Positions 3,701 to 28,070 of a stretch of DNA of 64,000 bases are shown here, piece after piece. How positions within the stretch are numbered: position 1 is the first letter of the stretch; the number at the start of each line of letters is the position of its first letter. This DNA comes from Styela clava (Eukaryota), in the NCBI RefSeq assembly GCF_964204865.1, contig NC_135256.1, forward strand, positions 9,858,001-9,922,000. The letters run 5' to 3'. The position numbers and the translations under genes were made by a program. Below the pieces are notes generated by a model that saw only the letters and a list, made by a program, of their open reading frames with translations, did no database searches and was not told where the DNA came from.

Positions 3701-6700
3701 GTTCTTCATTGTACAAAACGCTTAACATACAAGCCCCCATAGATATGATTAAACCAACAAATGTAAAATAGCACATATTTTTACCACGGATATCACTTTA
3801 GTCCCATCATTGTTGCTCGCAATTCAATTGCTTTTGCATGAGTGCCCCTTTCAATTTTGTAGTAAAGAATTAAATGAAATTGCAAATAAAACTGATACCT
3901 GAGTGTAGTCGCCCGTTATGAATGCTTGCTCAAATCCAGAATACATTGTTATAATGATCAACATAATTTGACGTCGATCTTTCATGTGCAAGAATGTTGC
4001 GGAAAGAAGTTCTTTCGTTCCTCGACTTTCATTGTCTCTGTTCAGAAATATAATATCAAAAATTACCGCATGTACCATTACATTTTACTATTTAATTTTC
4101 AGAAAGTACACCCATACTATTGTTTTTTTTTTGTTCTTAGATACCAGAATTTTCACAAGCAGAAAGGCATGTTAGGTATAGCAAATAATACAATATCATT
4201 GTTTTAGGGAATGGGAAAATGTTAAATGTCTGCCATCCTTTTAGCTTAAGATCACTAAAAGTAATTTATAAATTAGCGAAACACCATTATTTCGTTGCAC
4301 TTCAATATAAAAAGCGCTTATAATTATATATTTTCGTGTATGATTTTCACAATAGCAACGGAACTTTAAGATAAACCATAAAGCGGTATCACAATAAAGA
4401 TTCGTTGAATTATAGTTTTGCGATCTGTGTACACAAGCCAGACTTGTCACGGCTGGTATTTTTAGCATTCCCAAATATTTGCGTTTCCAATCTTATATTT
4501 ATGATGGCAGAGCAGGTTGAAGGATGCAAGTTTATTTTGAATTTTATCAAACGAAGCTAACAAAATTTACCCGGAAACGTTAAGTTCTATTACTCTGAAT
4601 TAACAAGCGGTAACCTCACCTAATCACAATTCTGTCCACGAAAAACGCCATGTTTGCCGCAGCTAGAAGTCCAACGGCCGTGTAAATTCCCATCAATATG
4701 TAAATGGTCTCGTCTGGAATTTCATCTTTAGTTGAATCGGCTTAAATTAAGATGTTTACTTTTAAATTAAAAATGAAATTAGTACTTAATATATTAAACC
4801 AAACTGTACAATTTGATCAATAGAAGTTTAAGTACAATGAAAGATCTCTGATATATAGTGATCAGGGCGAGGAATGATTAACAACTACTCAACAGATATC
4901 AGACAGTCAACGGCCACTTTACCAATTGACTGTCATTTCAGGTGGTGCTCTCTTTTCATTGCATATTCACATAAAATTAATTATCCAGGACTTTACTTCC
5001 GTAGTCCTAATCATAAAATCGCTTGGTAAATACCAGGAAATTTCTAACGAATAAACCACAAAATGCATGAACAATGATTACTGCTGACTGTTAAAAACGA
5101 GGCAATGAAAAGTTGCGTATATATGTAAGTTGAACCTTATATAATTAAACTATAGGTTCATGACAGCAATATAAAACGGCTGTTAAACTTCATTGAACAC
5201 CGATTACTGGTATACTTTTGCGCTATTTCCACTTCAAATTCCGATAACTTTTGTGGGTCAGGAGTACTTTTGCCATGAATAATGACCAAGGCCAAGCACA
5301 AATAATTCGTAAAAACATTCAAACCTCTTCCAGTGCCATTCTGACAATCATTGGCACCACAGAAATTTTCAATCCTTACTTTCTCTTCTTCACTAACACT
5401 ATCTGGAAACTCTGTAATAAAAATGAGGCGTTTGAAATCATGCGAGTACTTAGAATATTTGGATCATTTACATCAAATATGGAGTTGAACAAATTTTTTT
5501 ATCAGTATCTTCAGGTAACTTTACAACACCTGCCGTTACCGTAAGGTTACACCTATGAAATTACGTATATATATATATTATATAAACGTGCAATTCTATA
5601 TGAATTTGCTATCAAAGCTTACCAACATGCCAAAGTGTAATGTACTTGTTACGGAATAATACAATGGCAAATCATTTATATTTATGCAAAAATAATCAAG
5701 TTTAGAATTTACGAAAACATAAACGCTGTATAAATAATGAATAAATAATCGTACCAAGACTGGCTGTATTCGCTGACGAGAGCACAAATGATGAAATCAA
5801 ATTTCCGATGATTTGATTCATTTGAAATATCAGGAAGAAAATCCCAAAAAATCTGTTGACAACTGCATCCACACTCTCATTGGTCAATCTTGCGTATCTA
5901 TTAGTAAATAAATATTATTATCTCTATCCTTCTGCTGATTTCAAAAACGGATTCTATTATACCCACCTTTTCGCCACAGTCGTCAGGTAGGTACATTTTG
6001 CTGACCACAGAGGTGCGCCAGAGAAGCCTAAAATAATAGAAGCAGGCACCAATGTCCCCCATGAGGGATAAAAATTAGCGAGTGAATAGCACGTGTATCC
6101 GAGAATCGAACCGAATATTGTCCATTTACATCCAATATGTCTGATAACTAAACAAAATTAAAAATTTCGATTAGGGTTACGCGGGATAAGTGATGTTATT
6201 TTCGGACAGTCGAAGCATTTGACAAATGTGACAAATCAAATGTGCCAAAAGGGGTTGTGATGGTTTGGGATGCAAATGTTTCAATATATATATACTATGT
6301 CTAATTTTGCTTGTTCAATTACTCTGACATTGTGAATCAATCTGGAGTTTGTCTTCTTCAATGTAAAAAAATAAAAGAATTATAACTTTGCATACTACAG
6401 AACGTCAATGCTTAATTCTATGCTGGAGGTGTACCAATTCAACGGTAATCGTTTATTCTATTTAAGTATTCAAAAACATATTAAAGTCGTAACTGATGAA
6501 TAGTCGTATACTATAGCAATAAAGGAATTGGGATGAGATTTTGAAAGATCTCTCATTAATTTTATCGATTTAAAATAAACATGTAATTTTGTTGAGATTC
6601 ATCATGAATTTGAGTCACATAACAATTTGAAAAATATGAATTTCTGAAAATCAACAATAGGAAGTTATCTCAGTCCGCCAAAATATAGCATAACACAAGT

Positions 6701-7802
6701 TTATACCCAAGTTTTAAAAATAATAATAAAGATAGTAAACAACAAACTGAAAGTTGGTGTAAACATTGCAGAGACGATAAGAGATCCATATATGATGGAT
6801 AGAGATCCCGTTCCTAGGCCTTCGTCCGGATTCAAACTAGACTGAAGATTCGATATTCCTGCAAATGCCGTGAAATTGAGAAGAAAAGAAAGACAAATCA
6901 AAAGAATGTTCTTCATAATGTTGAATTTTTCTTTCCTAAAAATTAAAAAAAATTTGGATTGGTAAATAATTCTGGTAACGTTGAGGCATGGAGTGCTTTA
7001 TATGAAGAATAATTTCAGAAATTCATTACCCAGACAATAAAGATTTTTTATCCATCCACAATCCAGTGTAAATCAAAGTAAAACTACTCATCTTTAAACC
7101 TGGATCTGGTTATTAGCTCATTCAGCATGTTCCATGCGTGATAAAAAGTTCAACCTTATGTTGAAAGATGATTGTGTGATGCAGTGCCGGTTGTTCATCT
7201 CTTATATTTAGAATTCAGTGCTTTCATTTAATGTAATGATTTTGAAACACTTAGGTCTCTTATTAGTAAGATCCATAAATGTGTGTTGTTTACTCAGATT
7301 AAAACCGTTATTGTCTTAGTCAATACAAGCGATGATTCTAATTTTCGGATTAGTACTCCCGTCAGTATCGATACTAAACAATCAGTTTACAGATTTTTTG
7401 ACGATAAGCACACACAGACTAAATGACCTTGAGTAATACGTATTGTGCAAATATTTTGTATATCGGATGTCGTTTATGCAAGTTTCTATATGATTTGTAT
7501 ACGTAAAACAAACCTAATGCTGAAAGCAACAAAAAGTCAGTTTATACTTTTATTTTTGTATTTTTTTTTCACTTGACATTACTCCGAGTCGAATCAGATG
7601 ACAATATTTGTTGAGCAATATTTATTAATGCAAAATAATATTCTCTTTCCAAACCTAAAAATTCTGTCCTAATTAATGTACAAAAAGCAAAATAAAGTAT
7701 CTTTAATTTTCAAAGTACGTGATTTTACCTGACAGCATCGTGATCAGAAAGAGAAACTTCGTCGTACACTCTCCTATTGGACGTAGCGGATTCAGCTTCC
7801 AT
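714..7802 (-). CDS. UNC93A: UNC93A-like MFS membrane protein, paralog 1 (11 coding exons)
   Basis: Exons (minus): 7802-7729, 6935-6748, 6147-5967, 5897-5755, 5411-5325, 4740-4620, 4037-3899, 3198-3025, 2313-2220, 1875-1697, 863-714, all GT-AG with frame kept. UNC-93 motifs: KNILLICLSFLLNFTAFAGISNLQSSLN, APLWSAKCTYLT, RFFGIFFLIFQ, FCGANDC, YSGFEQAF, WGMADAVWQTQLN, FANYRLWESIGFVIAFAY. Ends ...GELTSF*. Confidence 0.93.
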
Positions 7803-10213
7803 ATTTAGGCAACTCAGAAAGTAGCTTCAGATTAAATTCTTACTTTGATTAAACAAAAGTTAGCATATAGACGTAGCCAGTATCTAAAACTCCCTATAAT
7901 ATAATCCAAAATTGGAAATCAAGAAATATCTGAACCTTATCTCTACTCTTACATTTCTCAGAAATTTATTTTCGCTTACTCCTTTTATTGATATTTCGCT
8001 CCTTTCGTACATGCATGCATAACACAAGAAAAACGATTCTCCCGTATATCTAATCGCGTTTTAAATCAGAACAATATATGGTAATTGGTATCGGAATGCT
8101 GACAAAAACTGCACTTGGACTTCACGTTTGCTTTCATTGTATCCAGCAATACCTCACTGTAATGTTGTAGCTATTGTCATCATGTACCCGTCAAAAACAA
8201 TTTAACAAGATTCTAAGTTAATCAGTAGTCAATCGCATTCCCAGCGCCCATTATTGAACTGCTCGACAGCACGCACCGGAAGGAAAGAAAGCTTAGTTGT
8301 AATTTGAATTTGTTTGCACGTCAAAGATTACATATTTACTTTTCCTGCTTTACCGCTCATCCAACCTATTGTAAAAGCTGTTGAAGTATTGTTACAAAGT
8401 TACAGCATACCATTTTAAACATGTTTTATAGGACGGGGATTCATTATTAAAACTGGAGAGACTAGACGTTTTTTACATTGTTTGTAAAACCCAAATACAG
8501 AGAAATTTTGTTACAGTGCGTCCCAAGATATTAGAAGGACTTTCTTTTAACATATTTTCAATTTTATATGGGTCTTATATGCTCATAAATCTCCCTCTCG
8601 CCAATGTCTACACTAAACTATCTCTGAACAGTTGTCTTCTAATTCTAAATAATAGTGACAAATCTGCATAGTGAACGAGTTCCAAAATAAGGCTTATCTT
8701 TTTACACAGTAACTAACAGTGTGTCTAATACAACTAGCTGTGAACTTTTCTAGAAATAAAATCTATTATATATATATATATAATATCATGAGTATTTTTT
8801 CCTCGTATTTACTCGTGTCTGTTAATTTCAGCAATTACTATATATTCCCGATTGAAGTTCAAACACAAACGTAATCACAAACGTAATGAAGTGTGTGGAA
8901 CTGGGTAGTATCAGGTTGATCCACGGCGCTCAACGTTTTATATAGAAGCACTGTGAGGGTTGCATTCGAGATTTAGCCATTCAAGACACCAAATACAAAA
9001 TTATAATATCAGTTCGAGATAATTCAAGGTAATTTACCAGGAACAAAGTAAATCCCCGAAAGTACTGAATTAATTGTTACGTAAAATATGTAAATATGAT
9101 GAAATCGGTTTATGATAATTTCCTCATTTTCAAGTTCATCAATCTACGTACGAAGTTAAAACCCTAATCTTTTTTCCAAATTCGCATCAGTTCGATTACA
9201 TATTTTAGCAGCAGCTATTTAACATTATTTTTAAAGATGACATGACAATCGTAATTGTTCGATGATAAATTTATTTGTGTTCGTTCCTGAATTGCTGGCT
9301 ATTCAGCAACAGATATTCTTACTATATATCTGCGATGTCAGTGACTAACTTGGCATCCTCTTTCCTCGGGCATAAAAACAATTCAATAAAGCCTTAGTGC
9401 TACAAAGCTCTATTATATATAGCAGCTTGCTTTCATTCAGCACCACAAATTGGCCAAATTAATATTCCCATGGGTCAAATTAATACTTCGACGAAGAATG
9501 ACTTGTAAATAGTATAATACTGAAGTAATATGTATAATTATTGCTACATTTCCTGCTATGTAACTGCAATTGAATCGCATTTCTGGTAAGTAGTGATTCG
9601 AATCAGCACTGTTCGTTTTTTGATGAAGCGATGATCTACTTGTGATTATAGCATCGATCATAGTATGCATCAATAATGTTCTCAACAATGTTTTCCTAGT
9701 TAGAGCAACCAGTGTAATAGGTTTTAAGCTTAAAGCAATGTTCTTGTAGTGCAAGATCAAATCTGACATACCCAAAAAATATTGTGCATAGCGAGCACCA
9801 AATATGCAGCTGTTGTTGTTCATGATATTACGGGAAGGGATAAAGCGGACCGGACATAAATGTTACAAATTCTCTTGGTAAAACTTTGTCTTCTTATTCA
9901 ATTGAAACAATTTTTAATTATTCTAAATTCAAAGACATGATAAGTTGGTAAATTATAATGCAGCCAACGATTTACTGATTTTTACACACACATTATGCAA
10001 TTGAATCGAATACTAAACTATTTTTGGCTACAACGCAAGCAACTGCATAACTAGTTAATACCTTGTGTAGTATTGAATAGGATTTGAATGGGATATTGAA
10101 GTTTAATATATTGATGTAAACATAGTTTCAACAAGAACGTGCGTAAATAGAGTTGATACACAAAGATCCATAATGTTTTAAACTGAAGATTGATTCAGAA
10201 ATTTCGACTTTGT

Positions 10214-11961
10214 TCAAAAACTTGTTACATTGTCTTCTGGAATCTGACGTACGTTGTCAAATGACTGTTTTCGTTCGGAATGATCTTTTGATGTATTAGC
10301 AGATTTATGATTCATCTTCCGTTTTCTTTCTAATAACTGAGATGAGAATAAGATAAATATAACAGTCTTTGAACCATAATACATCGATTATGTTTAAAAC
10401 GTATGGGAAACACATAAAGGTTATAGTAAAAATACAGTTATCAGTGCCTCAAACATAAATACACATCTACAGTTGTCTCAATCATTTTGCTGCAATGCAT
10501 TTTCATACAATCAAAGTGATTTATAAAGCTACTATAGTTAAATGAAAGTTTATAATTAGTATCCAAAGTATATGTACAAAATAAAGTCATACTAATCAAA
10601 TTTAGATCTGTTTGGAACAAAGTTGCGCAACAACAAATCCTATGGATTGCCATAACTTATAATTGGAAAAACTTTCTTCTTGTCGGTCAAAGAAAAGTAT
10701 GGGTTATTGCTATAATAAAATTATCAATTCGTGACGTTAAATTAAATTTTTAGTCCTCCAATTCTCGAACCATAGAAAGAAGAATGACGTAATTATAGCT
10801 ACTACCATTTAACCTCTGACAGATTTTTACAGGCCTTGACTCCAAACGAGACATTAAATTATGACAGCACCTCATATTAAAAGGATTTTTTTGATCTAGT
10901 ACTGACGCTGTTTGAAGAAAATTCATTCTTAAATAAAGAAGTATCCATATTTTATATTATCGTATTCTTCGCAAATAATGAGCTCTGCCACTATGTGACA
11001 AATTCTCACTATTTGTTGAAACCCAGTTAAATTTTTTAACCTGAATTTCAAACATCAAATGACAATATTTGAACTCACCGTTCAGCTGCGTCCGCCATAC
11101 TGCATCAGCAATTCCCCAGAACGCTGGAATAATGAAGAAGGGAGCTGGACTCGTTGGGTAAGGAACCCATACCTGTAAAAGAGTGGATAAGACTGTATAC
11201 ATGCTGTAATGGATGATTCGGTGTCACTATGGGTGAAAAATCTGACCAGTTTTGAGGTGAGTGGGATCACAAACAACAATCCTAGTTATTCCTCGACCCT
11301 CACTCATTTTGTAGGAAATCTCCACTCTCCCTTTTCATAGATTAGGAAAAGAAGTGCAATCTGATAAACCTGGATTATTATTATCATATTAATAATAATT
11401 ACTTACTAGTAGTGTGGTAGTAATAGCAAATGAGATGAGAGTTGAGATAGAAAACAGAGGCACTCGACCCGTGTATTTTTCAATTCGTCCGAAAATAAAC
11501 GAACAAATAGAATCAACAGCTCCAAAACAAATCATCATCAAGCCAATCCAGTTGACAGCAATCGGACATGTTATAAATGACTGTAAAATAATTGTGCTTT
11601 TACTGATCAAAAAGGAATTTATAAATTTGTAGACAAGTATTATTCGTGTAATCTACATTGAATTATACTCTGCTGTACTACAATAGTGAATCAGTTTAAA
11701 AACAATGCTATGATTCAATGCTGTAAGTGAATGAATCGTGTTGCTCTATGGCCTACGCAGTGCAAACTTCAGAATTTGATTGTAAATTTTCAAATTCTGT
11801 AAAAAAATATACCAATTGACACCTTGGTGTAATCACCCGTTATAAAAGCTTGTTCAAATCCCGAGTATATTGTGATGATTATCAACATTATTTGATATTG
11901 ATTTTTCATATGAGAGAATGTTCCGATTAGAAGTTCCTTCGCTTCTCGGCTTTCATTGTTT
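10214..11961 (-). pseudogene. UNC93A-like pseudogene: exons 1-6 deleted, exon 10 truncated
   Basis: Copies of exon 7 (11961-11823), 8 (11580-11407), 9 (11172-11079), partial 10 (~10699-10626) and 11 (10336-10214). Relative to paralog 2, exon 10 has lost its splice acceptor and a ~213 bp block containing its 3' half and donor. No exons 1-6 present. Confidence 0.9.
11214..11385 (+). mobile_element. Possible 5'-truncated retroposon (SINE/LINE 3' end) in pseudogene intron 8
   Basis: ~150-170 bp present here but absent from the matching intron of paralog 2 (~26815-26840); ends in a short (TTA)n-like tail GGATTATTATTATC. Confidence 0.4.
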
Positions 11962-13261
11962 CTATAAAAAATAACCATTTTTGTATTCATTTGAGAAGCT
12001 GGCGGTACATTTCATTATGACAGGTTTATGAGACAACAAGTTAAATGGAGATGAACAGACTCATCACAATTAGATGACGATCCATTTGAGGTTGTGCAAA
12101 AAACTTTTTACTCGAGCGTAACCAATCCAGTTCGTTGAAAAATGGACATATGACGTCGATTGAGAAAAAAGAAATTATATTCGATCGTGGCAATGATAAA
12201 CACCCCCATGTATGCGCACATTGAATTGGCGTTCTTGTTCTCTTTTTTCCTTCCAACTTACAACTTTATTGTATATGTCACGTCAGACTTCATCTCAAAT
12301 GGCAAAATATAAACAAATCAAACTCTGTATCGGATGAAAATAACACTTCACTGCATCTTGCATGTACCCTATTCAACCCCCCTTCCAATAACATTTTCCC
12401 GTGATCAACGTTTGTTGTTTATCGAATAAAAGAGACCGATTCTGCTATCTCTTTCTGCCACGCTCACAGCTAATCCTACCAATGACTATATCCCTTTTTT
12501 GTCTATTAGTACTTTTATTGCGGTACATCGCCAGTACCCCTGGCCTTCCCCATGCAGGAAGGCTGAAACAGTATTTATACAAATAAATACGAATGATATT
12601 GAACGTGAACCTTAATAAAAAATGAATTGAACATGTAATGAAAATAACACTTGTCAGTATAAAAGTAAATAATCCGGGTTATCCAACTAGGTCAGCCCCC
12701 CCAACGAAATATGAAATAAATGTCGGATGCTCGTCGAGTGGCTCGTGATCTGGCGGATATATAATCAAAGTGTATAACGTATGAATCGACGCCAGTCGCG
12801 GCCAACCCGCCGAACAAAAACCACACAAAAAACAACAACAAAAAATAACGTAAAAATACTCTTGCTGCGAAGGGCTGGCCAACTCGGCAATGGGTTCTAA
12901 CCGACTGTATAATAGGTACTTCGCCTCTTACTATCGACTGGATTGAAAAGATGAAAGGTGTGAAGTGGTCGCAGAAAGAAAAAAAAAAAAAACTAAAGGC
13001 AATTGATCAAAATTATAATTTGGTGACATATGACATATATCTAAATAAAAATTGACATAATGGAGGCGAGCGGTATGAAACTATATATATATGACATATA
13101 TAGTGCTCCATGCTTATTGCCGAGCGTGAATTTGTGGAAGTAAGTGGTGGGGAGGGGAATAAATTACAACCAAATAAATTTAGAGCCACTGGATCAGTGG
13201 AGTTATTTCAGTGAGCAAAGGGCTCAAACTGCCTCGGGAAATCGCTAGTGGGATACAACTG

Positions 13262-13451: not shown

Positions 13452-13937
13452 ACTGCATTGCCAAATCTTATACGGTACCGGTGTCGAAGTCCACCCGGTG
13501 TCGACTATCGTACCCATTGGGGGTTTTATACACCTAAATGACCGTAACCCATAAAAAAAAACTCTCGACTTTCGCTAAACACGAGAACCGCTGAAATGCG
13601 GTAACGGAACCGCTACAGTAAATTGAAGTATACAATTACACTGGTATAGGTAAATTTATCTAGGTACACACTTGAATGAAACATTTTCGTGCATGCTAAT
13701 TTACTATATAAGCCCATTATTCACTGTTTGAGTATCCTATTGGATCGTATGGTATTGCGATCGATCAAAACGGTACCGTGGTGGTACGACGGAGTTGATG
13801 ATAAATATTGTCGCGTTGTTCGATAAAGACTTCTGGTGCAGGAACTGGTGCGACCGTGGCTGTTTGTCGTGGAACGTCAGACGAAAACTGTCGTCCACCA
13901 AAACAACAAGCCAATATATACTTTATTACTCCTAAAA

Positions 13938-14683
13938 TCGAAATGTACGTGAGTGCAAATGTCCGGGGGTGCAAATGTACGTGTAATGCGTACAAAATAA
14001 TTGTACGCATAGACGTGGACATTTACACCCATGGAGACTGGAAGTAAACGAGTTTTTTTGCCATTTGCGTCGAAAATGGGGCATGCTAATGTTATTACTA
14101 GTAACGAATGCGAACTCACTGCATATCCCCCCGCGATAACCGTAATTTTATTTCCTAGCATCGAGCAAATCCTCGAGACAAGTGAAAAACAACTGGAAGT
14201 GGTAGACATCACTGTGGCGTAATAAAACAACTTAAGACAAGGGTCGTAAACAACTTGATCGACATATGATATATATATATATATACATATATATCCCCCA
14301 GGCCCCAATATATATATATATATGCTGTACTCGCCAAGTAGAGTTTGTTTTCTACTTTTTTTTCATCTAGGTTTAATTATTATTTCCTATCAAAGCGCGT
14401 TAATCAACTCTGACATAATAAATTTAATTGTGGCAAGTTTTCATAAGGTATACCGTAATTGCTTTCGAACACCGACGTGATTTTGACAGTGTTTGCGTTA
14501 TTTTGTTAAAAAAATGAACGACAAAGTGCAAAAGTGGCTGCAAATGTACAGTGGTGAAAGTATACGTAGGTGCAAATGTATATGTTTGCAAATGTACGTG
14601 GATTCAAATGTCCATGGGTACAAAATGTACGTGCAATTGCATGCAAATGTCCATAGGTGCAAATGTACTCGAGGAGTGCAAAT
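13938..14683. repeat. Degenerate ~15-bp GTGCAAATGT(AC/CC) repeat arrays, probably subterminal repeats of a decayed DNA transposon
   Basis: Several GTGCAAATGT-like units at ~13940-13982, an inverted unit GGACATTTACACC at ~14017, and a longer array at ~14525-14683. Confidence 0.6.
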
Positions 14684-15370
14684 ATATTTTAGAAATAATA
14701 AAAAATGCCTTATATTTCGAAATAAATTGGTAATACTAATTTATATCAGGTGTTCCAGAAATCGACCTTTTTTAAACTTAAAGCATGCATCCAATATAGT
14801 CCATGGTAATATTACGTCAACCGTATCGGTATGCAGAAGATGACTACGCAGACAACCGGTAACAATTTTGTTAGCTCACAGATGTTTTACAATCGTCCCT
14901 GGAGGCCATTATCTGATGGGCAACAAAGAAAAGGCTAGTTTGGAGGATATTTCCCACATAGAACGGGAACGATTTGGTCGAGATTGTTTTATTGAGTAAA
15001 AAGGTAAATATGCCTTATTTTTCCCGGTAAAACTCGAAGATCAAATGACCCATGACAGTATGTTTGAGTTTAAGATCATCCGATTCAATATAATGGGTAA
15101 AGTTACAAAGTAATACAACTTTATGTTGTACGGTATTTAGTTATATAAAAGAAGTTAGTTCCACTTTACCAACAGTTCAGGTCGAAGAAATGCTTTGACG
15201 TCATCATTCAAAATCTTCGAATAAAATTGTGTAAGCGTACAATGTACAAAAGAGTACAAGTACATTGGCCGAAGAAGCGAATGCTCGGGAAAGCTTCCAC
15301 TCAAAAAGAGAAGTCATTAATAAAAACGCTGAGTATATTCCTGAACAAAATTGTTTTTGACGTACTTAAT

Positions 15371-15652
15371 TGAGACACACTTAACACTTTACACAGTAAA
15401 TCAGGGGTGAACCAAAACACATCGCACTTAACGCAGTAAAACAGAAGTGAATCTAAACACAATATTATGCAGCCCTCTCGGCAAGCCGGAACGATACGTC
15501 ATCAAATTGGTCGATTCGAGAAAGGCAGTACATGTAATCAGTAATCAGTGTTGCAACAATAAAATGACCTATTGTGTGAAATGAAATACACTATTAAAAT
15601 GAAAGGGTCAAATACATTATAATCCATAGTTACACAAGGCACATTCGCTACA
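15371..15652 (-). repeat. 3' LTR (282 bp)
   Basis: Direct repeat of 20229-20485; PPT at ~15655-15664. Confidence 0.93.
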
Positions 15653-16344
15653 CAATTCCCCCTCGACAGTAAAAATTTTGGAGTCCGGCCGCCGAGAGAT
15701 GAAGTGAAAGAAAACAAAATAACACGAATTAATAAAAGATATTAGTACGATATGATGAATAATGTCTAAGATATACGAAAGAATATACGCCGTTTACGAG
15801 AGAAAACAAAAATACGAGAAAAAAATTCAAAGGGTCTCTAAGTTGCTTAGAAATGCTTAACATTTTAAAATGGAATTGTAACGCAATAGTAAACAAAATG
15901 GCGACAATACTTGAAGGAAGGGACCTAAAAGAATGTAAAACAGCTTTGATGTTTAAAGGAGGGGCCTAAGAAGAAACAAATGGCGGATTTAGTACTTAAG
16001 TATTACACCGAAATTGGTTTGGTGTTTAAGATTGTAAAATTGGCGTTAGAGGTTATTTGAAACAAACTATTAAGAAAAAATCCTGTAAATTGAATAATTA
16101 GTAATTTGACAGATTATTGAACCATTGAATCCCTGAAATTGTACCTGAATCAAATTTTGTATGAAGTAAAAGAACTCATGATATCTAAAAAACAACACAT
16201 TGATTAAAAACAAGTAATTACAAGTACATACACAGAAAAGAAAACTGACACTACACAATTTTTTTATTTGTATGTTTTTTTTTTTATATTTAAATTCTTA
16301 TAGTAAGGTGTTTTGATGTTTTATAATGGATAATAAGAGAAAAA

Positions 16345-17401
16345 TTAATAAAATACAAGACGAATAAAGTGATAAAATACAAGATGATTAATAACGAGGC
16401 GATACATTGCGAGATACACACCATATACAATTCGCAACGACCGCCGGAATCGAGTTGACTTAATAGGGTGGGGATAAATTAAAAGGTTGTTACAGTCAAA
16501 CTTTCGACTCCATTTGAGCTTGGGGGCGCTCGCATCTGAGAAGTTGCTAGCATTTTCCATCGATTCATCGTCAATTTCGACATCGGATAACGGGTGTATT
16601 TCTTGTTGTTCGTTGAATTGTACGACGGGTTGTCGTGGTATGCTGAGAAGTCGTTGTATTGGTTGCAGCAATCCATTTGTTAATGCACAGCGAACGGACA
16701 TTCGGCAGTTTGGCAAACTTCGATAGATGAAATAACCTATGTAAAGCAGGAGTACAACGAATAAAGCGTAAATGAGGCCAAATAGCGGCTACGCCTCTAT
16801 GACGTAATCTGACAATGTTTTCGCAGCTGTCATTTACGTTTAAAACTAAGCTATTGTATGTACGATAGACTTCGTCTGATTCAAAGCAAGATTTCGTTAG
16901 TTGAGAGCAAGTTTCGAAGGTAAGGCTTTGGCCAATGATCGGTATTTCCAATCGGTAAGATTGCCCGATACATTGTAATGTAACAAGAGTTAGATAGCGT
17001 TGAATTTCGGAAAGTTGCGAGCTCTACAAGCTTTCGAATCTTCAACATTCCAAACAAATGTAAACCCACCGTTCCGGAAAAAACCGGAATTGGGTGCGCA
17101 TTGGCTGAGGTATTTGAACGTGTTTTTGGTTGCGCTTGACGAAGAACAGCCATGAAATGGTTCGCCAGTAGGTCGTACGTTTACGATCTTGGTATCAACA
17201 CTTGCAAGAAGTGTAGATGTGGATGTTTGCTGAACAATTCTTTATCGTATGAAGTTTGTGTCGATTGCAAATGGCTGGTTTGCGTATGTCGTAAGTCTGT
17301 CTATGTAACGATTTGTGGCATAATTTCAGTGGTCCCTCAACGGCTTGCGTTCTCATACAAAGCATGACAAAGCAAAGTAATGTGTAGTGAAATATGGTCA
17401 T
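16345..17401 (-). pseudogene. Decayed env-like type I membrane glycoprotein of the Gypsy element
   Basis: ATG at 17401 gives signal-peptide-like MTIFHYTLLCFVMLCMRTQA; Cys-rich fragments across frameshifts (LKLCHK...PAICN...KNCSAN; CAPNSGFFRNGGFTFVWNVEDSKAC at 17100-17026; ETCSQLTKSCF...VNDSCEN); TM helix LFGLIYALFVVLLLYIGYFIY (~16785-16723) followed in frame by a tail RSLPNCR...; lies between pol and the PPT. Confidence 0.7.
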
Positions 17402-20104
17402 CAGATATCCATCTGAAATTCGCTTGATAGAATAAAGTCTTTGCTTAAATGGCGTGGGCGTTTTCTCAGCCTTCGCGGCCGATTTGATTTTTGCTGATTT
17501 GACATTTCCGGAGACGGCCCCAGTCGATGCGCTGAATCTGTAAAATGAATTATTGCATCGCAATTTGATCGTTTCGTGCTTGTATCGGATATCGTATTAT
17601 TATTTGAAATATTGAAATTGAAAGTCCGTGGACGCGAAATCGTGATATCGCTCGCCGGTCGTTCATTTGATTTGGCGCCAAGATTCCTATCCTCAATATC
17701 TTCATGCAATAGGTCAGAAGTTGGTAGGTGTGCAACTTTTAAGTTGTCAATTGAACATTCATACGGCTTTGAGTTCCGGTCGACGATAAAATGCTTACTT
17801 CCACGATTTAAGACCTGGAAGGGTCCTTCATAGAAGTTTTCCAGTCCTTTTCTTGATCGACTGATTTTGATAAAAAAATGGCTACAATTTCTCAAGTCCT
17901 TTGGTATATAAGTTTTTCTTGGAGGCTGTTTGCGTGTTGGATTTGAACAGAGATTTCTGAAAAATCTCTTAAGTTTATTTACATATGTATGAGGGTTAGT
18001 ATTTGTCGCGTCTGGTTGCGGTTCCACAAATTGTCCTGGAAGGCGTAATGTTGATCCGTAAACTAACTCAGCAGGGCTGAAACCCAAATCTTCTTTAACA
18101 ACTGATCGAATACCAAGTAATACAAACCCAAATTCGGAAACCAGTCAGATGGATGTTCACAAGCTCTAAGAGAAGCTTTAACAGTTCGATTAAGACGCTA
18201 AACTAAAAAATTTCCTTGAGGACGATATGGCGCTGTTAATATATGTTTTGAACCAAGGAACATCATGGAATCTTTCCAAGTTGTTGATGTAAATTGCGGT
18301 CAATTATCTGTAATAATTTATTATATAATTATTAGTGAAAGCGTGTACGATTGTATTAGTTAAACTGTCCTTCAATGGAACACAATTGGATATCTTGTAT
18401 ATCTGTCAATTATCATAAGCAAATAAACATAACCATGAGATTGAGGGAGTGGTCCAAGTAAATCTACGTTGATAGTGCTAAAACGTTCATCTGGAACTTT
18501 GATGTTTTTCAATACTGTGCGTATGTGTCGTTGAACTTTTGCTTTCTGGCATCGTATGCTCTCACGAACAAACTTACGGTTGTCTTTACTCATAATCGGC
18601 CAGACATACCTGTCTTTTATAAGTTGTTGAGTTCCTGATATTCCTGGATGACACAAATTATGAGTTAGGTTGATAATGCGATATCGTAATGAAGTTGGAA
18701 TATATGTTCGAGGTTTGCCAGCGAGACTGACGTCACAAATAATGTTTCTTGCCAATCCTGGGACTGGTAATTGTACTAACTGTAGAGAATGCTTGCTTGC
18801 GTTCGTTAGAAGTTGCTTTAGCTCGTGGTCATTTTGTTGTGCGTTATAGATGTCAATTAACGGGATAATTTCCTGTTGAGGAACAATGGCATTTATTCCA
18901 CCATGCTCTGCGGGGTGAATTTCAATTCGGCTCAGTGTGTCCGCTGCGATATTCAATGCACCGGCAATGTGTTCTACTGTGAAATCGAAAGTTGATATGT
19001 ATTCAAGCTGACGGGCCTCCCCTTGGATTAATCGCTCTTTCGGACTTTGAATAGCCTGTACCAGGCTTTTCGAGTCTGAGATTAATTGAAATTTCCTGCC
19101 TGTCAATTCATGCCGAAAATATTTGATAGATTCAAAAATAGCCAGAAGTTCCTTGCCAAAAGTAAAATAAGTTTTCTGGGGGCCACGAAGGGCTCTCGAA
19201 AACATGCCCAGAGGTCTCCATTGATTATTTTCAAACATTTGCAAAACACCTGATATTCCAATGTCAGATGCATCAGTAATTAAACAAATGGGTGCTTGAT
19301 GATGTGGATGAACCAAAAGCGTAGCTTTGGCTAAAGCATGTTTAATGTCATCAAAAGCTTTCAAAGATTCATCATTCAATTTGATTCGAGAACGTTTACT
19401 AGGCTTCACAACTGTCATCTCATTTAATGGTCGTATAATGGTAGCAAAGTTATTTACAAAACGATTATAATATGTACAAAGACCATTGAAAGATCTTAAT
19501 TCTTTCAATGTGTTCGGTTGAGGATATTTTTGCAATACTGCCACCTTGTCGGCTAAGGGTTGTATTCCTTCGGGCGTAACATGATGGCCCAAGAATTTAA
19601 TTTCTGATTTGTTGAAATGGCATTTATCTGGATTTATAGTAAGTCCATAATTGTGTAAGCGTTCTAGAACTTGATCTAATGTTCTTCCTCTGTTTTGGTT
19701 GCAATGAGAATATCGTCGAAGAATACAAATATATTGTCGATGCTCGCTAAAACTTCGGTCATGAAATAATTGAACGTCGCTGGGGCAGATGCTAGCCCGA
19801 AACAAAGAGTTTTACACATGTACATCTTATTTTTGCAGGAAAAGGCTGTTTTTGGTTGATCCGATTCCAAGATAGGAATATGATTATAAGCTTTTGTGAG
19901 ATCAAGTTTAGTGAAATGTCGACAGCCATGCAATTTATTGACAAAATCGGACAAGTGTGACACAGGGTGTTTTTCCTTGATCGTGATTGAATTCAAAAGT
20001 CGAAAATCGAGGCACAGCCTGATAGCATTAGAACCCCGCTTTGGAACGATGGTAACTGGAGAATTATAAACGGAATTACATGGAATTATATCTAAGACTA
20101 TCAC
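17401..20104 (-). pseudogene. pol: Gypsy pol remnant (RT, RNase H, integrase) with frameshifts and stops
   Basis: RT: SPVTIVPK, RLCLDFRLLN, FTKLDLTKAYNHIP, FGLASAPATF, VFFDDIL; RNase H: ITDASDIG, KELLAI, ADTLSR; integrase: HNLCHPG, VDLLGPLP, TDN*PQFTS, FSPAELVYG, YEGPF. Frameshift near 19680; stops in the catalytic core (~18200-18310). Confidence 0.95.
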
Positions 20105-20228: not shown

Positions 20229-20485
20229 TGAGACACACTTAACTCTTAACACAGTAAATCAGGGGTGAACCAAAACACATCACACTTAACGCAGTAAAAC
20301 AGAAGTGAATCGAAACACAATATTATGCAGCCCTCTCGGCAAGCCGGAACGATACGTCATCAAATTGGTCGATACGAGAAAGGCAGTACATGTAATCAGT
20401 AATCCGTGTTGCAACAATAAAATGACTTACTGTGTGAAATGGAACACACTTATAATCCATAGTTACACAAGGCACATTCGCTACA
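20229..20485 (-). repeat. 5' LTR (257 bp)
   Basis: Direct repeat of 15371-15652 lacking a ~25 bp internal segment. Confidence 0.93.
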
Positions 20486-21153
20486 GAACTCTAACTTCAG
20501 TTTAAGTTTACCAATACTTTAATGACGTTCTTCATATTGTGGGTATGTAGTAAAGACAGCAAAGTAAATATGTAATCTGTGACTGCAAACAACTTCGAAT
20601 TTCTGTACTATGACGATCTCATTGCAACAAAAGAATTCATGCACGTTGACAAATAATGAAATGATGGGATATAGTCTGTGATAGGATTAGCTGTTTGCGT
20701 TGCAAAATGAGATAGCAGAATCAGTCTCTTTTATTCGATAAACAATGAACGTTGATCGTGGGAAAATATTATTAGAAGGGGGGATTTAAACAAGGTACAG
20801 GCAAGATGCAGTGTAGTGTTATTTTTATCCGATACAAAATTTGACTTGTTTATATTTCGCCATTCGAGATGAAGTCTGACTTGATAAACAATAAAGTTGT
20901 ATGAGATTGTCATTTGTATATTAGCCTACTGTATTTTGTTATAAGCGCTTGCGGGGAGGAAAAAAGGTCTTTCTTTCAAAACGATTACAAATGTATCACT
21001 CGAATATTTTCGTTCAAAAAATAATACCTTTTATATACCTCTTATACATATATTATGTTTAAATCACCAATATATCGTTAATATGTAAAGCTTATCTTTT
21101 GAACACAGTAGCGCTGTTCTTTACTGGAGAATTATTTTTGAATTGCTGTGAAA

Positions 21154-23983
21154 ATGGAGGCAGGGAATCCTAGCAAAGATGCACCAACGCCCGGCAATGC
21201 CACTCAATACGAGGAAGTTTCACTTTCCGATCACGATGCCGTCAGGTAAACTAAACGAAGTTTTGCAACTTTATTTTTTATCGCCTTGACCAGCACTTTG
21301 TCGGCGGTATAATTAAAATAGCAGATAAACTTCAAGTTTTGATGATATATACTTAACAAAATATAGTGTTAATCAAATACTGAATGGAATGCGACTCGTG
21401 ATTTTAAGTGATTTTTTACTGCCGTTTTAGGAAAGAAAAATTCAACATTATGAAGAACATCCTCTTAATTTGTTTGTCATTTCTTCTGAATTTCACTGCA
21501 TTCCACGGAATATCAAATCTTCAGTCTAGTTTGAATTCGGATGAAGGTTTGGGAACGGGATCTCTATCTATCATATATGGAACTCTGATTATCTCCTCAT
21601 TGTTTACACCAACTTATGGTTAGTGTTTTTCATTTACTCGTACGCAATCAACAAAACATTGCATGTTTTCATAGTTTCAGAAACATTCTTTATAACTGAA
21701 TCAAAGGTTGTAAATGGATAATACTTTATTGTTACTGGTATCGTGGCAATTGTCTGTTCAGTTTAAAAATGATAGACAGTTCAAAATGCTCGATTTATTT
21801 TGTGTTGATTGCGCAAGTACACAAAGGTCAGGAAGTCTGAACCAATTGAGTGAGCATTCTCACAAGAAAAAGGATAAGTACATTTCGTTAATTGTTTTAT
21901 TAATTAATTTGTATTCAATTAATTTAAATTTCCTAGCGATTAAAATATCAAATTGAAACTGCAAAGTTACACATATATAATAATTGTACAAATGGTACAC
22001 ATAGACTACGGTACATTTTTATTTAATTGATTTGAATCCGGAGCTTACCATTATTACTACTAGTTTTCTTTTTCGATTTTCAGTGATAAGACATCTCGGA
22101 TGCAAATGGACGATGTTTGGTGCGATTCTGGGTTACACAACGTATTCACTTGCAAACTTCTACCCGACATGGGGAACATTGGTTCCCGGATCAATTATTC
22201 TAGGTATTTCTGGGGCTCCTCTGTGGTCAGCAAAATGCACGTATTTAACAACAGCTGCCAAACGGTGCGTTAATTGAAGTTTGCTATTAAAATTTAATGT
22301 TGATCTAACTGAAATCTTATATATATTTGTCTTATTATGTATTCCATCTCTTTTCTATTGTTAGATATGCACGATTGTCGCGGGAGAGTGTAGATGCTGT
22401 TATCAACAGATTTTTCGGAATATTTTTCCTAATATTTCAAATGAATCAAATCATTGGGAATTTGATTTCTTCATTTGTTTTATCGACGGCTAACACAACG
22501 AGTTTAGGTGAGAATCTTGTAGACTAAACGTGTTAGTGTATTTATATTTCATTCCAAAGATTGCGTACCTGTCGATGTAAACTCTAAAAAATGACATTTT
22601 TATTTATATAAACACTTGTACACTTTGTAATTGGCTCATTTTAGGGAATGAAAACAACATTGAATGGGGTCATTATATAATATGAACATGCCTATCACTT
22701 CTACTCTCTCTATATATATGACAAAACAATATTATAAAGGGGAATTCGATCCGATGCCAATTACATTACCAATTGTATGCGTGATCTTTATTACGGATGT
22801 GAAGTAGAACGTGGTTATTTACTAATATATCGTCACGCTAATAACCGAATTGCGTAAGTCCTTTTTGGCGATTTTGAGTTTTTTATAAAATAGGTATTTA
22901 TGTGATGCTGCGCACCTGTCTGTTAACTCATATTTTATTTTAAGAACTCCGAAACCCATAAAAATGGTGATTTAGTATGACATGCACATTTGTGCAATTG
23001 TTTCGTCATAATGAATTATCATTGTTACCGCAGGACTATTGTGACGTCACAAAGGCAAAATGACCTCCGCTAAGTATTTTCGAGTTTTTGCATATCGGAT
23101 TTTTAGCCTAGCGCGTAATAATTTGAATTTATACTACAGTATAGGAAGGCGTGCACTTGTGATATTCACTGTCCGAGTCCAATACACCTTGGTTGGCTTT
23201 TATATTGGGTGCATTGCTGTTTTATTCTTTATATTTTATCTTAGTCTTATTTCGGTGGATGTGCAGAACGTGTTATATTGATGAAATATATATTTTTAAA
23301 CATAAAAAATAATGTAATTGAAACTGATTAATTATTTTGGGGATTAGACATTGTAGATACTGAGAATTACATTCGTTTTGGAATGTTTAGTTTTCAGGAC
23401 TGGTGCATATAGTAAAGTTGCAAAATTGCGTATGTCCCCAAGTCACAGACACATTTCTGCCTAAGTCACAGTGCGCCATTATGACGTCACTTAACTACGT
23501 CATGCAAATGACCTTAAATCCGGCTACGATCAAAAATTGAACCATGGCAAATTATTGACTCTCAATGACATAATCGGTTATTAGCGTGACGATATATAAA
23601 ATAAGATATCTAGAGAAATTTTGAATCTGCGAGGATTGCCATGCCAGTAAAATGTAATAGTGAAATAAAATATATAGTGGACGTGTTCACGGTCACGTCT
23701 TTAAACAATTTTTTGCAGACTTTGCATTCGTGACTTTTGACAACGGGACAAACTAAATGCATATTTATACGAAATTTAACCGTAAAATGCAAAAAGGCTC
23801 ATCGCGATCAAATACTTTTTTGATAAGCATTACGAAAAATTGTATAAGGATGCTATAACCTGAGTCACAGTCGATAGTTATGAAATACGCAAACTGCTAT
23901 TTAGGAATATGCAGGGTATCCATAAAACCACCTAACAAAATATTACATATAGTCAAATGATGATTTTTATAAATTGATAACAC

Positions 23984-24020
<37 letters not shown>

Positions 24021-27000
24021 ACACTAAAGTTTGCATACAATAGATGTATTGCATGTTCTAATCAAAGAAAGGTTTGAAAGATTTAATAAATGTTAGATAA
24101 CTCAAACCTATCTGTTTCGCTAGCAGAGGTTTCTAACCTTTTAGTGATTGCGTACCACTTTTGTGTTTTTTATCTGGACCCGACAAAACCCCCTTTTGAG
24201 GTGGGGAACAATGGCACAAGCATCGCGCTATGTGAGTATTTTATGTGGCACTACATCAACTTTAGACCTTTCTGCAGAGTTCCAACGTATTAATTTTATG
24301 AAGTAACAACGTATTAATCGCGTGCAAAATCGCAGGAGAATTTGCGTCGTCTGTCGTTTGAGCTGAAAGAATTTATTCCGAATACATACAGTATGGAAGA
24401 TAAAGCGTTGTAGCCATATTTTAGCCAATTTAAAAGATTATTGTTTCAATAATTCAAACTACTCGTCTAACACTCAAAAAGCTTCCGCGTACCACAGGTT
24501 GAGAGCCACTAGCTTAGAAATGCAAAACAAAATTCATGAATAACTTTTGGTGTCTGAGTAATGTAAGATCACTCGTTATTTATTACCAAATAAATGAAAT
24601 ATGCCTACATTAACGCCCGAGAAGACAGATAGGGGAATAATTTCGCGGGTCGCCCTACCTACATATTCACGTAACGGAAACAGGCAACTGGTAGACATCA
24701 CGTACGCAAATTATTAGTTAACCCGATTTCAGCCTCAATTATCTTATCTTTCTTTGAGTTAATTACGTTAATAATTTTACTTGCCAAAATCACGATTATT
24801 CTCTTGTTTCTGAACAATGCTTTATTGTTCAATATATCACATCAGGTTCAACGTGTCGGTTGTTGAGTAATTATTGCTATTAGCCCAATCCCTGAACTGA
24901 TAGACGATCAAAGCCAATGTTTTCAGCAAGTCAAAAACATTACATAAAATCAAGTACATAACGATTTTAAATATTTCATAAATGTATACTTCGTAATAAA
25001 AAAGCAATTTTTTTTTATCTAAGAGTTCCCAGATAGCGTCAGCCAAGAAGAAAAGTTGAGAATCGCGGAGTTCTGTGGTGCCAATGATTGTCAGAATGGA
25101 ACTGGAAGAGGTGGATATGATTTTATTTGAATGAAATTATAGGCTATTTATTAACTTAGCCAAACACGGTTCAATGTTTAAAACACAACATACCAGTTTG
25201 ACCATAGTATAAGGCTGGACAAGTCGTCCATGTTCGGTACATATTTTAGCTATTACTTGTTTGTGTCACGTTATAAAATCCAATTTGTTTTATTAACTGA
25301 CACACGCTGACCCTCTTCAGTGATGACAGAAAATATTATATCATGAAATTTCTCTTAATTACACATAAAATAAAGATGTTTTACTCGTTTCCTCTTACTC
25401 GTCTTCTTTCCGCATTGACTCAAAATTTCATTACAAGATTATTATAGTAAATAATGAACTTTTTTAATAAAGATAGAAAAAAAAACATAATTTATATGAA
25501 AATGATATTAAGTATCGTATAATTCTACATCAAATTGTTCCATATTTTAGAATAGTTCTAATCGCAACACGTTCTACAGATGAACTAAGTAATATATACC
25601 TCTCATACAACATTCTCTCAAACAATAGTCTCTATTTTAGACGAATCAACCAGCGAAGCAATTCCAAATGAGACCATTTATATATTGATGGGAATCTACA
25701 CGGCAGTTGGTTTTTTAGCCGCAGCCAATGTAGGATTATTCGTGGACAAGATTATTATCAGGTTAAACTTCTGAAATTTTCAACCTACGTAATCAATCAC
25801 GTGACTGTTACACTTTACGACTAGTTGTTACGAGACTTGTTGTTTAAGAATTAAGCATGAAAAATATTTTTCTTTTCTTCTTCTAAAGTGAATTTTTCAA
25901 AAAAATCAAAATGTTAGAGTAGAAGTTTCAATTTATCGGCAAGAGAAAACGGGAATGTTTTACTAGCGAGTACTTCTGTATCCTTGAATTGAATTAGATA
26001 CGTGATACGGGAACAAGGGCGCCAATTCAATGAGCGCCTATCATGGTTGGGTTGTTCATTGCCATGATCCACGATCGAACATAATTTCTCCATTGTTCAA
26101 TAATAATCGACGTCATATTCCATTTTTCGACGAACTATATTGGTAACGCTCGAGTAAAAAGTTTTTTGCACAACCTCGAATGTATCGTCATCTAATTGTG
26201 AGTCTATCCTCTCCTATTAACTTGTAGTCTCATAAACCTGTCATAATAAAATGTACCGCCTGTTTTTAAATGAATACAAAAATGGCTATTTTTTTATAGA
26301 AACAATGAAAGCCGAGGAGCGAAGGAACTCCTAATCGGAACATTCTCTCATATGAAAAATCAATATCAAATAATGTTGATAATCATCACAATATACTCGG
26401 GATTTGAACAAGCTTTTATAACGGGTGATTACACCAAGGTGTCAATTTTGAATAATTTTTTACAGAATTTGAAAATTTCAAATCAAATCCTGAAGTTTGC
26501 ACTGCGTAGATAACATTCAATCAAATGATAACATTGCTCTTCAACTGATTCATTATTCCAGCACACCAGAGTAATCAATAAATCACTTTTTGTTCAGTGA
26601 ATGCGCAATTATTTTACAGTCATTTATAACATGTCCGATTGCTGTCAACTGGATTGGCCTGACGATGATTTGTTTTGGAGCTGTTGATTCTATTTGTTCG
26701 TTTATGTTCGGACGAATTGAAAAATACACGGGTCGAGTGCCTCTGTTTTCTATGTCAACTCTCATATTTCTTGCGATATTTATCACACTACTAGTAAGTA
26801 ATTATTGATATATGATAATCATTCATAATTACAGAACATTACAGCATGTACAGTCTTATTCACTCTTTAACAGGTATGGGTTCCTTACCCAACGAGTCCA
26901 GCTCCCTTCTTTATTATTCCAGCGTTTTGGGGAATTGCTGATGCAGTATGGCAAACGCAGCTGAACGGTGAGTTCAAATATTGTCATTTGGTGTTTGAAA

Positions 27001-28070
27001 TGCAAGTTAAATTTTGATCGAGTTTCAACAAATAGTAGGAATTTGTTACATAATGGCAGAGCTCATTATTTTCGAAAAATACAATAATATGAGATATGGA
27101 TACTTCTTTGATTAGGAATGGATTTTCTTTAAACAGCTTCTAGTTCTAGTTCAAAAAATTTTTTCTATTGTGAGGTGCTTTCACAATTTCAGTGTCTTGT
27201 TTGGATTCGAGGCCTGTAAAAATCTGGCAGACGTTAAATTGTATCAGCGCCCTACTCCTTTCTCTAGTTCAAGAATTAGAGACATAAAAATTTAATTCAA
27301 CGTCACGAATCGCTACTTTATTATAGCAAAAGTTACTAATAACCCAATGTTTTGCAGCTTTGTACGGCGTACTTTTCTTTGACCGACAAGAAGAAAGTTT
27401 TTCAAACTATAAGTTATGGGAATCCATAGGATTTGTTGTTGCGTTCGCTTACCAAAGTTACGTTTGTGTCTACGTCAAATTATACGTACTTCTCAGTTTT
27501 CTAATTGTTGGAATGAGCTTGTATCTTGCTGTAGAGGTTAGTATCACATTGAATTCTTTTTACGTTCTCTGCATATTCTTTCACCCCACATAGATCAATC
27601 CAAAGTGAACACTGACCTACATTCGCTTTTCTAGCCAGTATTTGCTAATTGTTTCGCAACTTTGTTCCAAACAGATCCAGATTTGATTAGTATGACTTTA
27701 TGTTTTACATATATATACTTTGAATACAAATTGGAAACTTCTTCTTAACTAGTAGCTTTATAAAGCAATTTGATTGTATGCTAGTGCACTGTAGAAAAAT
27801 GATTGAGACAACTAGATTGTATTTATGTTTAATTAAGGTACTGATAAGTGTAGAGTAATTTTACTATAACATCAATGTGTTCCCTATACGTTTCAACCAC
27901 AATTGATGTATTATGGTGCAAGGATTATTTTAATATTCTCATTTCAGTTATTAGAAAGAAAACGGAAGATGAATCAAAAATCTGCTAATACATCAAAAGA
28001 TCATTCCGAACGAAAACAGTCATTTGACAACATACGTCACAATCCAGAAGACAATGTAACAAGTTTTTGA
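21154..28070 (+). CDS. UNC93A: UNC93A-like MFS membrane protein, paralog 2 (11 coding exons)
   Basis: Exons 21154-21245, 21431-21618, 22084-22264, 22365-22507, 25024-25110, 25641-25761, 26300-26438, 26620-26793, 26874-26967, 27358-27536, 27948-28070; same intron positions, phases and UNC-93 motifs as paralog 1; ends ...DNVTSF*. Confidence 0.93.
22828..23594. mobile_element. MITE copy 1 (TIRs TATCGTCACGCTAATAACCGA, TA-rich target) in UNC93A-2 intron 4
   Basis: Terminal inverted repeats; near-identical second copy at 53756-54586; this copy lacks ~55-60 bp inside the right TIR. Confidence 0.9.
23988..24017. repeat. (TA)n microsatellite
   Basis: About 15 TA units. Confidence 0.9.
24124..24511. 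mobile_element. Degenerate hAT-like MITE
   Basis: Left CAGAGGTTTCTAACCT and right AGGTTGAGAGCCACT are imperfect inverted termini; GCGTACCAC is repeated subterminally; no clear TSD. Confidence 0.5.

Follow-up and report, generated by a model that had tools for sequence, protein, structure and literature searches.

A dead Ty3/gypsy element of Styela clava with the remnant of a predicted gB-like envelope gene, and relatives that point to a spliced env message

INTRODUCTION

An envelope-like glycoprotein gene between the integrase and the polypurine tract (PPT) of an LTR retrotransposon raises two questions: where the gene came from, and what the element and its relatives do with it. Such a gene was noticed in a window of 64,000 nucleotides of the ascidian Styela clava (the window being the whole stretch of DNA that was analysed). 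The initial annotation described it as a captured env, likened its cysteine pattern to the class III fusogens of rhabdoviruses (G) and chuviruses rather than to baculovirus F, and proposed that it might represent a separate env acquisition in this host.

Class III glycoproteins occur likewise in BEL/Pao LTR retrotransposons; nematode Tas, for example, carries an env resembling herpesvirus glycoprotein B (gB). The superfamily differs, as the pol of the element studied here is of the Ty3/gypsy type. Mosquito BEL/Pao elements with a chuvirus G have also been described (bioRxiv 10.1101/2020.02.15.950899). Within Ty3/gypsy, env genes of gB type are reported across animals, and nine ascidian elements are assigned to cysteine type C3 in the survey of Chary and Hayashi (PMC13524379, eLife 2026).

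RESULTS

The window holds a dead Ty3/gypsy element with an env remnant

The element lies on the minus strand, as do all features described in this paragraph and the next, and this copy is dead. Its 5' LTR starts with TGT and extends from 20485 to about 20094, with a gap of ~66 nt; the LTR interval first proposed, 20229-20485, proved to be only the part held in common with the truncated 3' LTR. The inner end of the 5' LTR is fused directly to the reverse transcriptase (RT), so the primer binding site (PBS), leader, splice donor, gag, and protease are absent. The pol remnant (17404..20093) retains RT, RNase H, and integrase in several broken frames (Pfam RVT_1, 3e-22; RT_RNaseH_2, 4e-25; Integrase_H2C2, 8e-14) and is 95% identical to the pol of a full-length copy, L049. 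Beyond env, a long 3' untranslated region of about 830 nt (15665..16495) leads to the PPT (15656..15664) and a truncated 3' LTR (15368..15652), which keeps 284 of about 492 nt and differs from the 5' LTR by 10 mismatches. Assignment to Ty3/gypsy follows from the LTRs, the PPT, and the pol order PR-RT-RH-IN, the protease being seen only in full-length relatives (Pfam RVP, E 7e-5 in L033).

The env remnant itself occupies 16496..17401. It begins with the start Met of a hydrophobic, signal-peptide-like segment at 17401, and this segment and the start of the ectodomain (17135..17401), with an NCS sequon (17242-17228 context), are interrupted by a stop and a local frameshift. An ectodomain fragment follows in two frames (16778..17109), with a cysteine motif and the sequons NVS (16977-16963) and NDS (16837-16823). 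The transmembrane (TM) helix, LFGLIYALFVVLLLYIGYFIY, lies at 16785-16723 in a frame different from that of the signal segment, and the cytoplasmic tail (16496..16722) contains a frameshift near 16525. The signal segment, sequons, TM helix, and tail named at the outset are thus all present. Of the interval first given, 16345..17401, the start stands and the end moves to 16496, the stretch 16345-16524 consisting of out-of-frame read-through and 3' untranslated sequence. The cysteine motif, first written C-x3-G-x7-FVW-x7-C, has the actual spacing C-x4-G-x8-FVW-x7-C.

On either side of the element are several UNC-93-like paralogues, arranged both in tandem and in inverted order, at ~1700-12500 (minus strand) and ~20670-28850 (plus strand), with PF05978 matches at 11793-12011 and 22005-22274; one minus-strand UNC-93-like copy seemingly lacks its first exons. 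A repeat of ~750 bp, probably a small mobile element, is present in two copies 94-99% identical (22825-23573 and 53753-54505). Degenerate 16-bp tandem units at 13934-13980 and 14535-14668, possibly a decayed DNA transposon, flank ~600 bp upstream of the 3' end of the element.

A sister copy preserves the whole env reading frame

A DNA search of the S. clava genome with the env region returned at least 50 matches. At least 17 other places match nearly all 1076 nt at 89-93% identity, and a few match at 83-86% with long extra blocks. One of the latter, L014, contains a natural, uninterrupted open reading frame (ORF) of 648 amino acids with no stop, and so answers the question of whether other copies hold a continuous signal-ectodomain-TM frame at this position. 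Its signal peptide, judged by eye, is followed by an ectodomain with seven sequons and 17 cysteines, a TM segment, and a tail. The TM helix of the window corresponds to the sole strong hydropathy peak of this ORF (about residues 543-578; hydropathy-window starts 543-560).

The window pieces align to L014 residues 2-91, 177-227, 218-288, and 552-640 at 65-73% identity (E 7e-24 to 2e-35 and 4e-19), and matches of this strength indicate that they are not chance resemblances. The alignment bears out the suspicion that the copy is both frameshifted and internally deleted: the remnant corresponds to residues ~2-91, 177-288, and 552-648 of the sister ORF, with residues ~91-177 and ~287-550 missing. 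It also shows four segments in two frames rather than the three frames first counted.

The ectodomain is predicted to have a gB-like class III fold

Pfam analysis of the L014 ORF returned Glycoprotein_B (E 3.1e-10, 40.4 bits), just below the curated cut-off of 43. Against PDB sequences, herpesvirus gB accounted for 20 of 21 matches at E<=10 (best 3.7e-6), and for all 22 matches (best 1.2e-10) when the query was a profile built from nine natural S. clava env ORFs. The four env pieces of the window gave nothing significant with Pfam, because the gB-matching core (about residues 300-500) sits in the deleted part. A furin-like R-x-x-R site, which together with a fusion peptide characterizes F-type (class I) proteins, was looked for in the L014 ORF and none was found.

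A word-indexed homolog search with the intact env retained none of 6868 candidates at E<=0.001; a profile search found 420 library homologs. An alignment of 115 rows was assembled, including 109 library relatives picked by length from the best 150 of the 420, plus 5 further ORFs from the genome. With this alignment, AlphaFold2 produced a monomer model of the L014 ectodomain with pLDDT 84.5 and pTM 0.58, the last 60 residues being of low confidence; single-sequence prediction gave pLDDT 34 and no usable fold. The best Foldseek match in the PDB was human cytomegalovirus (HCMV) gB (E 1.8e-21), at a TM-score of only about 0.5, and VIA-align of the model with HCMV gB aligned 425 residues (Z 16.3, rmsd 5.6). 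In the viral library, herpesvirus gB ranked first, and behind it came rhabdo-like, entomopox, nyami-, and chu-like glycoproteins. A host cellular protein had been named as the outcome that would speak against a viral origin; none is among the structure matches listed.

Overall, the model predicts a herpesvirus gB-like class III fold for the L014 ectodomain, in agreement with the initial preference for a class III fusogen over baculovirus F. The narrower likeness to rhabdovirus G and chuviruses gives way to herpesvirus gB, the chuvirus-, nyamivirus-, and rhabdovirus-type proteins appearing as further class III matches. Sequence similarity to gB covers the central helix and crown region and the predicted fold aligns about 425 residues, whereas the L014 protein is shorter (648 aa), is 12-19% identical, and belongs to an element without a gH/gL partner.

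The env type is shared among ascidian elements

The ten domain I-II cysteines of L014 are spaced 19,34,72,7,17,41,7,8,13, near-identical to the 19,34,71,7,17,38,7,7,12 of Clavelina element 7 (PMC13524379), the latter counted by eye. Comparison of the spacing by eye places L014 domains I-II in the "Tunicata C3" pattern described in the survey, and therefore indicates that no separate capture took place in this host. The same source gives gB-type env with these ten cysteines for elements from three ascidian genera. Within S. clava, at least four diverged lineages (A/B, C, D, and E, the window copy belonging to family A and L014 to the B type) carry gB-type env; their pol proteins are 33-56% identical to one another, and the env proteins of the other lineages are 26-28% identical to that of L014. 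A Phallusia protein is the fifth library match to the L014 env among those listed (E 3.7e-132).

These results bear directly on whether a rhabdovirus-G or chuvirus-like glycoprotein was separately and recently captured in this host. In the viral library, glycoproteins of chu-, nyami-, xinmo-, and rhabdo-like type do match strongly in structure (E to 8e-20). Weak scores on Monjiviricetes_fusion or Rhabdo_glycop_FD are obtained for one family E env and for some library matches, and Ty3/gypsy lineages have gained env more than once according to the survey (PMC13524379). However, the best matches in both sequence and structure are to herpesvirus gB, the same env type accompanies all four lineages, and the cysteine spacing recurs in Clavelina. 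We consider such a capture very improbable, as it is largely refuted by an architecture common to the ascidian genera in the survey. On these comparisons, the gB-type env of S. clava belongs to a lineage known already from other ascidians, and the window copy is a new, decayed member of it.

The published ascidian C3 elements, described there as HSV/gB-type "ancient errantiviruses", are alike in gag-pol-env order, signal peptide, gB-like ectodomain, and TM, and at least one published member is primed by tRNA-Trp (PMC13524379). The survey takes intact elements with three uninterrupted ORFs, whereas the copy in the window is broken and comes from a subfamily that lost env. In C, D, and E, some copies retain uninterrupted gag, pol, and env (e.g., L033, L038, L045), and LTR pairs are 99-100% identical in C and D.

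Side observations on the wider set of env sequences were as follows. Loci L031 to L047 comprise at least three further env-carrying families, including a family C fragment (L031:7300-9900) that lies no more than about 4 kb from a telomeric CCCTAA-type tract at the end of a contig. At nine or more loci, a ~270-bp env fragment (env residues ~162-251; L014:2644-2979) stands by itself, the rest of the gene being absent; its depth in public contigs is very high, and it may ride in another high-copy repeat. Loci with only the short fragment (L020-L026, L028, L029) and a more diverged partial lineage (L027, L030) were kept outside the copy counts. Beside a B-type env fragment, L017:3659-5175 contains two adjoining intronless ORFs of 225 codons, the first a cyclophilin by Pfam and the second of similar appearance.

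The lineage carries CsRN1 hallmarks

The CsRN1 clade is marked by a CHCC gag motif, a tRNA-Trp PBS, 4-bp target site duplications (TSDs), and TGT...ATA LTR ends (PMC2582038). Full-length family A relatives of the window element (L048, L049) encode gag and a pol of 1167-1168 aa. The CHCC motif was present in seven of seven gag ORFs from four families, as CX2HX9CX3C exactly in five and with CX4C in two (family A), and the CCHC motif in none of the seven. TSDs of 4 bp flank 15 of 18 two-LTR copies, the others being one of 5 bp, one with 3 of 4 matching, and one truncated; the LTRs end TGT...ATA; and pol is in the -1 frame relative to gag in 4/4. In the B copy L013, the PBS matches the host tRNA-Trp complement over the first 13 nt, and family A copies have the same 13-nt stretch with one insertion and 0-1 substitution. 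The tRNA-Trp genes of the host are interleaved with tRNA-Cys genes in a long array (G000:C10:6856932-6939346, L071) with about 60 motif matches over 82 kb, 8 genes being confirmed in 3.5 kb; four single-site matches of the motif were rejected as tRNA genes.

A reverse transcriptase-RNase H (RT-RH) tree was built from the four S. clava families and 42 sequences chosen from the best 120 of 909 homologs, a length filter having dropped none. The four families group (FastTree support 0.994) with unnamed elements encoding CHCC/DUF7041 gag, apart from chromodomain elements. Named references for CsRn1, Tor, Mag, and Cigr are missing from the best 120 of the 909 and hence from the tree, whose topology is only indicative. 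Of the RT placement suggested initially, against Tor, CsRN1, and insect errantiviruses among others, what can be said is that the RT speaks for neither Tor nor the insect elements and that the hallmarks are those of CsRN1. Judged by the four hallmarks, the lineage of the window element would be tied to the CsRN1 clade. CsRn1, PwRn1, and AgCR also have the -1 gag-pol overlap (PMC2582038); in contrast, PwRn1 and AgCR are without env, and in family A the gag motif is CX2HX9CX4C rather than CX3C and the PBS is imperfect. A third, env-like ORF is reported for Boudicca and Saci-3 (PMC2582038).

Env-only copies join exactly at probable splice sites in three families

Six family A copies of about 3 kb (L002, L004, L005, L009, L010, L067) consist of LTR, PBS, leader, env remnant, untranslated region, and LTR, with 4-bp TSDs in five. 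In each, the leader is joined at the position of a GT donor, some 140 nt beyond the start of the PBS, to the position of an AG acceptor inside the 3' end of integrase, in the window at 17539-17538 on the minus strand, with 17537 as the first exon base of the proposed env subgenomic mRNA. Env-only copies of family D (L035, L043) and family E (L046, L047) use donors and acceptors of their own, so that in all ten (A, 6/6; D, 2/2; E, 2/2) the joint falls exactly where full-length relatives have GT and AG. As GT and AG each occupy 4.6% of positions, GT plus AG would be met by chance at about 0.002 per family. The AG is kept in all 16 unspliced A copies. The same joint, with GT...AG ends on the element strand, is found in public contigs; in contig set X2 it is carried by one contig with 27 nt on its short side, for which a genomic env-only copy could be the source.

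The leader supplies an ATG in phase with env in all six spliced A copies. In L005 the frame is open through the signal segment, and in four of the six it stops after 4-5 codons. By reading, the leader ATG is also in phase in B (L013) and E; in family D, no leader ORF running into env was found. Uninterrupted env ORFs are kept in three env-only copies (L035 of D; L046 and L047 of E).

All six ~3-kb A copies have one junction, as from a single deletion, and a tree built from the region that they share has little depth, as would be expected of one non-autonomous subfamily of ordinary internal-deletion derivatives. Against this, the junction takes out precisely GT...AG in canonical context, the same happens in two other families with unrelated sequences, the chance expectation is low, and the six copies form no single clade in the shallow tree. 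An internal-deletion origin is accordingly rejected by three independent exact joints, and we give it hardly any credence. The joints argue instead that the env-only copies likely arose by retrotransposition of spliced env mRNA, and a copy of this origin may later have spread as a subfamily in its own right. There is precedent on both counts: Drosophila ZAM and Beagle produce a spliced env mRNA that includes a short exon located before gag (PMC12992720, PMC4276936), and the spliced, retroelement-like SD' RNA of MLV exemplifies re-integration of spliced RNA (PMC2925334). The strings "CsRN1", "splic", and "subgenomic" are absent from the main text of the Chary and Hayashi survey (PMC13524379). 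A search of the literature, with subscription papers mostly outside it, found no report of a CsRN1 element with gB env or of spliced env-only copies of gB-type elements.

Family A probably lost env and kept copying gag-pol

The family A set comprised 22 copies (the window, 15 with pol, and the 6 spliced copies), copy numbers being lower bounds. The two env blocks missing from the window (about residues 91-177 and 287-550) are missing in all 22, and none of the 22 has the signal segment and TM in one ORF. The best single-ORF env cover is 62-221 of 648 aa, and frames vary between copies. Among the 15 pol-bearing copies (window excluded), six have an uninterrupted 1168-aa pol and three of the 15 a full gag as well; 12 have two LTRs, with 0-8 mismatches between them, and the gag-pol copies of family A are young. 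The B type was represented by ten loci, one with uninterrupted env and none with complete pol, and because of this the direct intact parent was not seen as a whole element. In no element among the 22 A and 10 B loci are all three ORFs uninterrupted.

Shared polymorphisms were counted per codon position, and the counts were 12/2/30 for pol, 4/4/10 for gag, and 15/15/13 for the env remnant. The bias differs between pol and env (Fisher p 5.6e-4, on small counts from 14 copies for pol and 22 for env), and the env remnant is flat over codon positions (p 0.91 versus equal). The pattern indicates purifying selection on pol and none on the env remnant. Fixed A-versus-B env differences are distributed 20/19/35 (p 0.04), and env therefore appears to have been constrained before its loss.

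The persistence of the remnant in 22/22 A copies, and of the acceptor AG in all the unspliced ones, might suggest that it was retained for a function, as a secreted decoy, a small membrane peptide, or a regulatory RNA element. The varying frames, the short single-ORF cover, and the flat codon-position counts speak against such a role, and the acceptor overlaps integrase coding sequence; we regard it as quite unlikely. A somewhat less unlikely alternative, although still one that we doubt, is that env-less A copies spread between cells with Env borrowed in trans from B-type or env-only copies. The uninterrupted B-type env of L014 and the intact env of the D and E env-only copies could provide such a source, and B-type env is covered, through most of the larger deleted block and with about 99% identity, by contigs from two public runs that were guessed to be RNA. 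However, contigs as such cannot demonstrate expression, and those from runs guessed to be RNA cover both the A and B subfamilies. B-type loci are moreover few and fragmentary, and A exceeds B in full-length copies, as in the env-loss pattern described for flies, in which env loss goes with a shift to germ-line expression (PMC13486581, PMC12992720). The simplest reading of the counts is that family A likely lost env and kept copying inside cells.

DISCUSSION

With good confidence, we interpret the locus as the env remnant of a predicted gB-like class III protein, carried by a dead Ty3/gypsy copy whose lineage has CsRN1 hallmarks; its intact relatives likely splice their Env message, and the A subfamily likely spreads within cells without env. 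The proposal of a separate acquisition in this host is the part of the initial annotation that we abandon.

In the life cycle that we propose, gag and pol would be made from the full-length RNA by a -1 frameshift, and tRNA-Trp would prime reverse transcription. A GT-AG intron would excise gag-pol and place a short leader exon, with its ATG in frame, onto env. The resulting Env would be a type I membrane trimer that fuses enveloped particles with a neighbouring cell; by analogy with Drosophila, the passage would probably be from soma into the germ line. As the spliced RNA would retain LTR, PBS, and PPT, its occasional packaging and integration might give rise to env-only copies. The A subfamily, having suffered two deletions in env, would have gone on to spread without an Env of its own. 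The Drosophila errantiviruses gypsy and ZAM, for which infectivity has been shown, differ in having an F-type (class I) env and a pol of another clade (PMC12992720, PMC4276936, PMC13486581).

A bolder version of this proposal, which we offer as speculation and think rather unlikely as a whole, is that the CsRN1-clade elements of this chordate are working endogenous retrovirus-like agents that produce a stand-alone gB-type fusogen (no gH/gL) from an mRNA spliced in the manner of retroviruses. That mRNA would have been re-integrated repeatedly, giving env-only proviruses of which some keep an intact env. These proviruses might supply Env in trans to relatives that have none, or furnish a class III fusogen that the host could domesticate.

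Env loss with continued copying has so far been worked out mainly in flies and vertebrates. After the 2026 survey, which lists gB-type elements in ascidians, the env itself is unsurprising (PMC13524379). What the present analysis adds is that env-only copies fix the env splice sites in three families, a subject on which the text of that survey is silent; that four hallmarks would link the lineage to the CsRN1 clade; and that one subfamily appears to have lost env while its gag-pol continued to be copied under selection. These additions are modest, and they make questions of expression and life-style testable. They also point to an invertebrate chordate system in which one may ask how a minimal gB-like protein fuses membranes without the herpesvirus helpers and when an envelope becomes dispensable.
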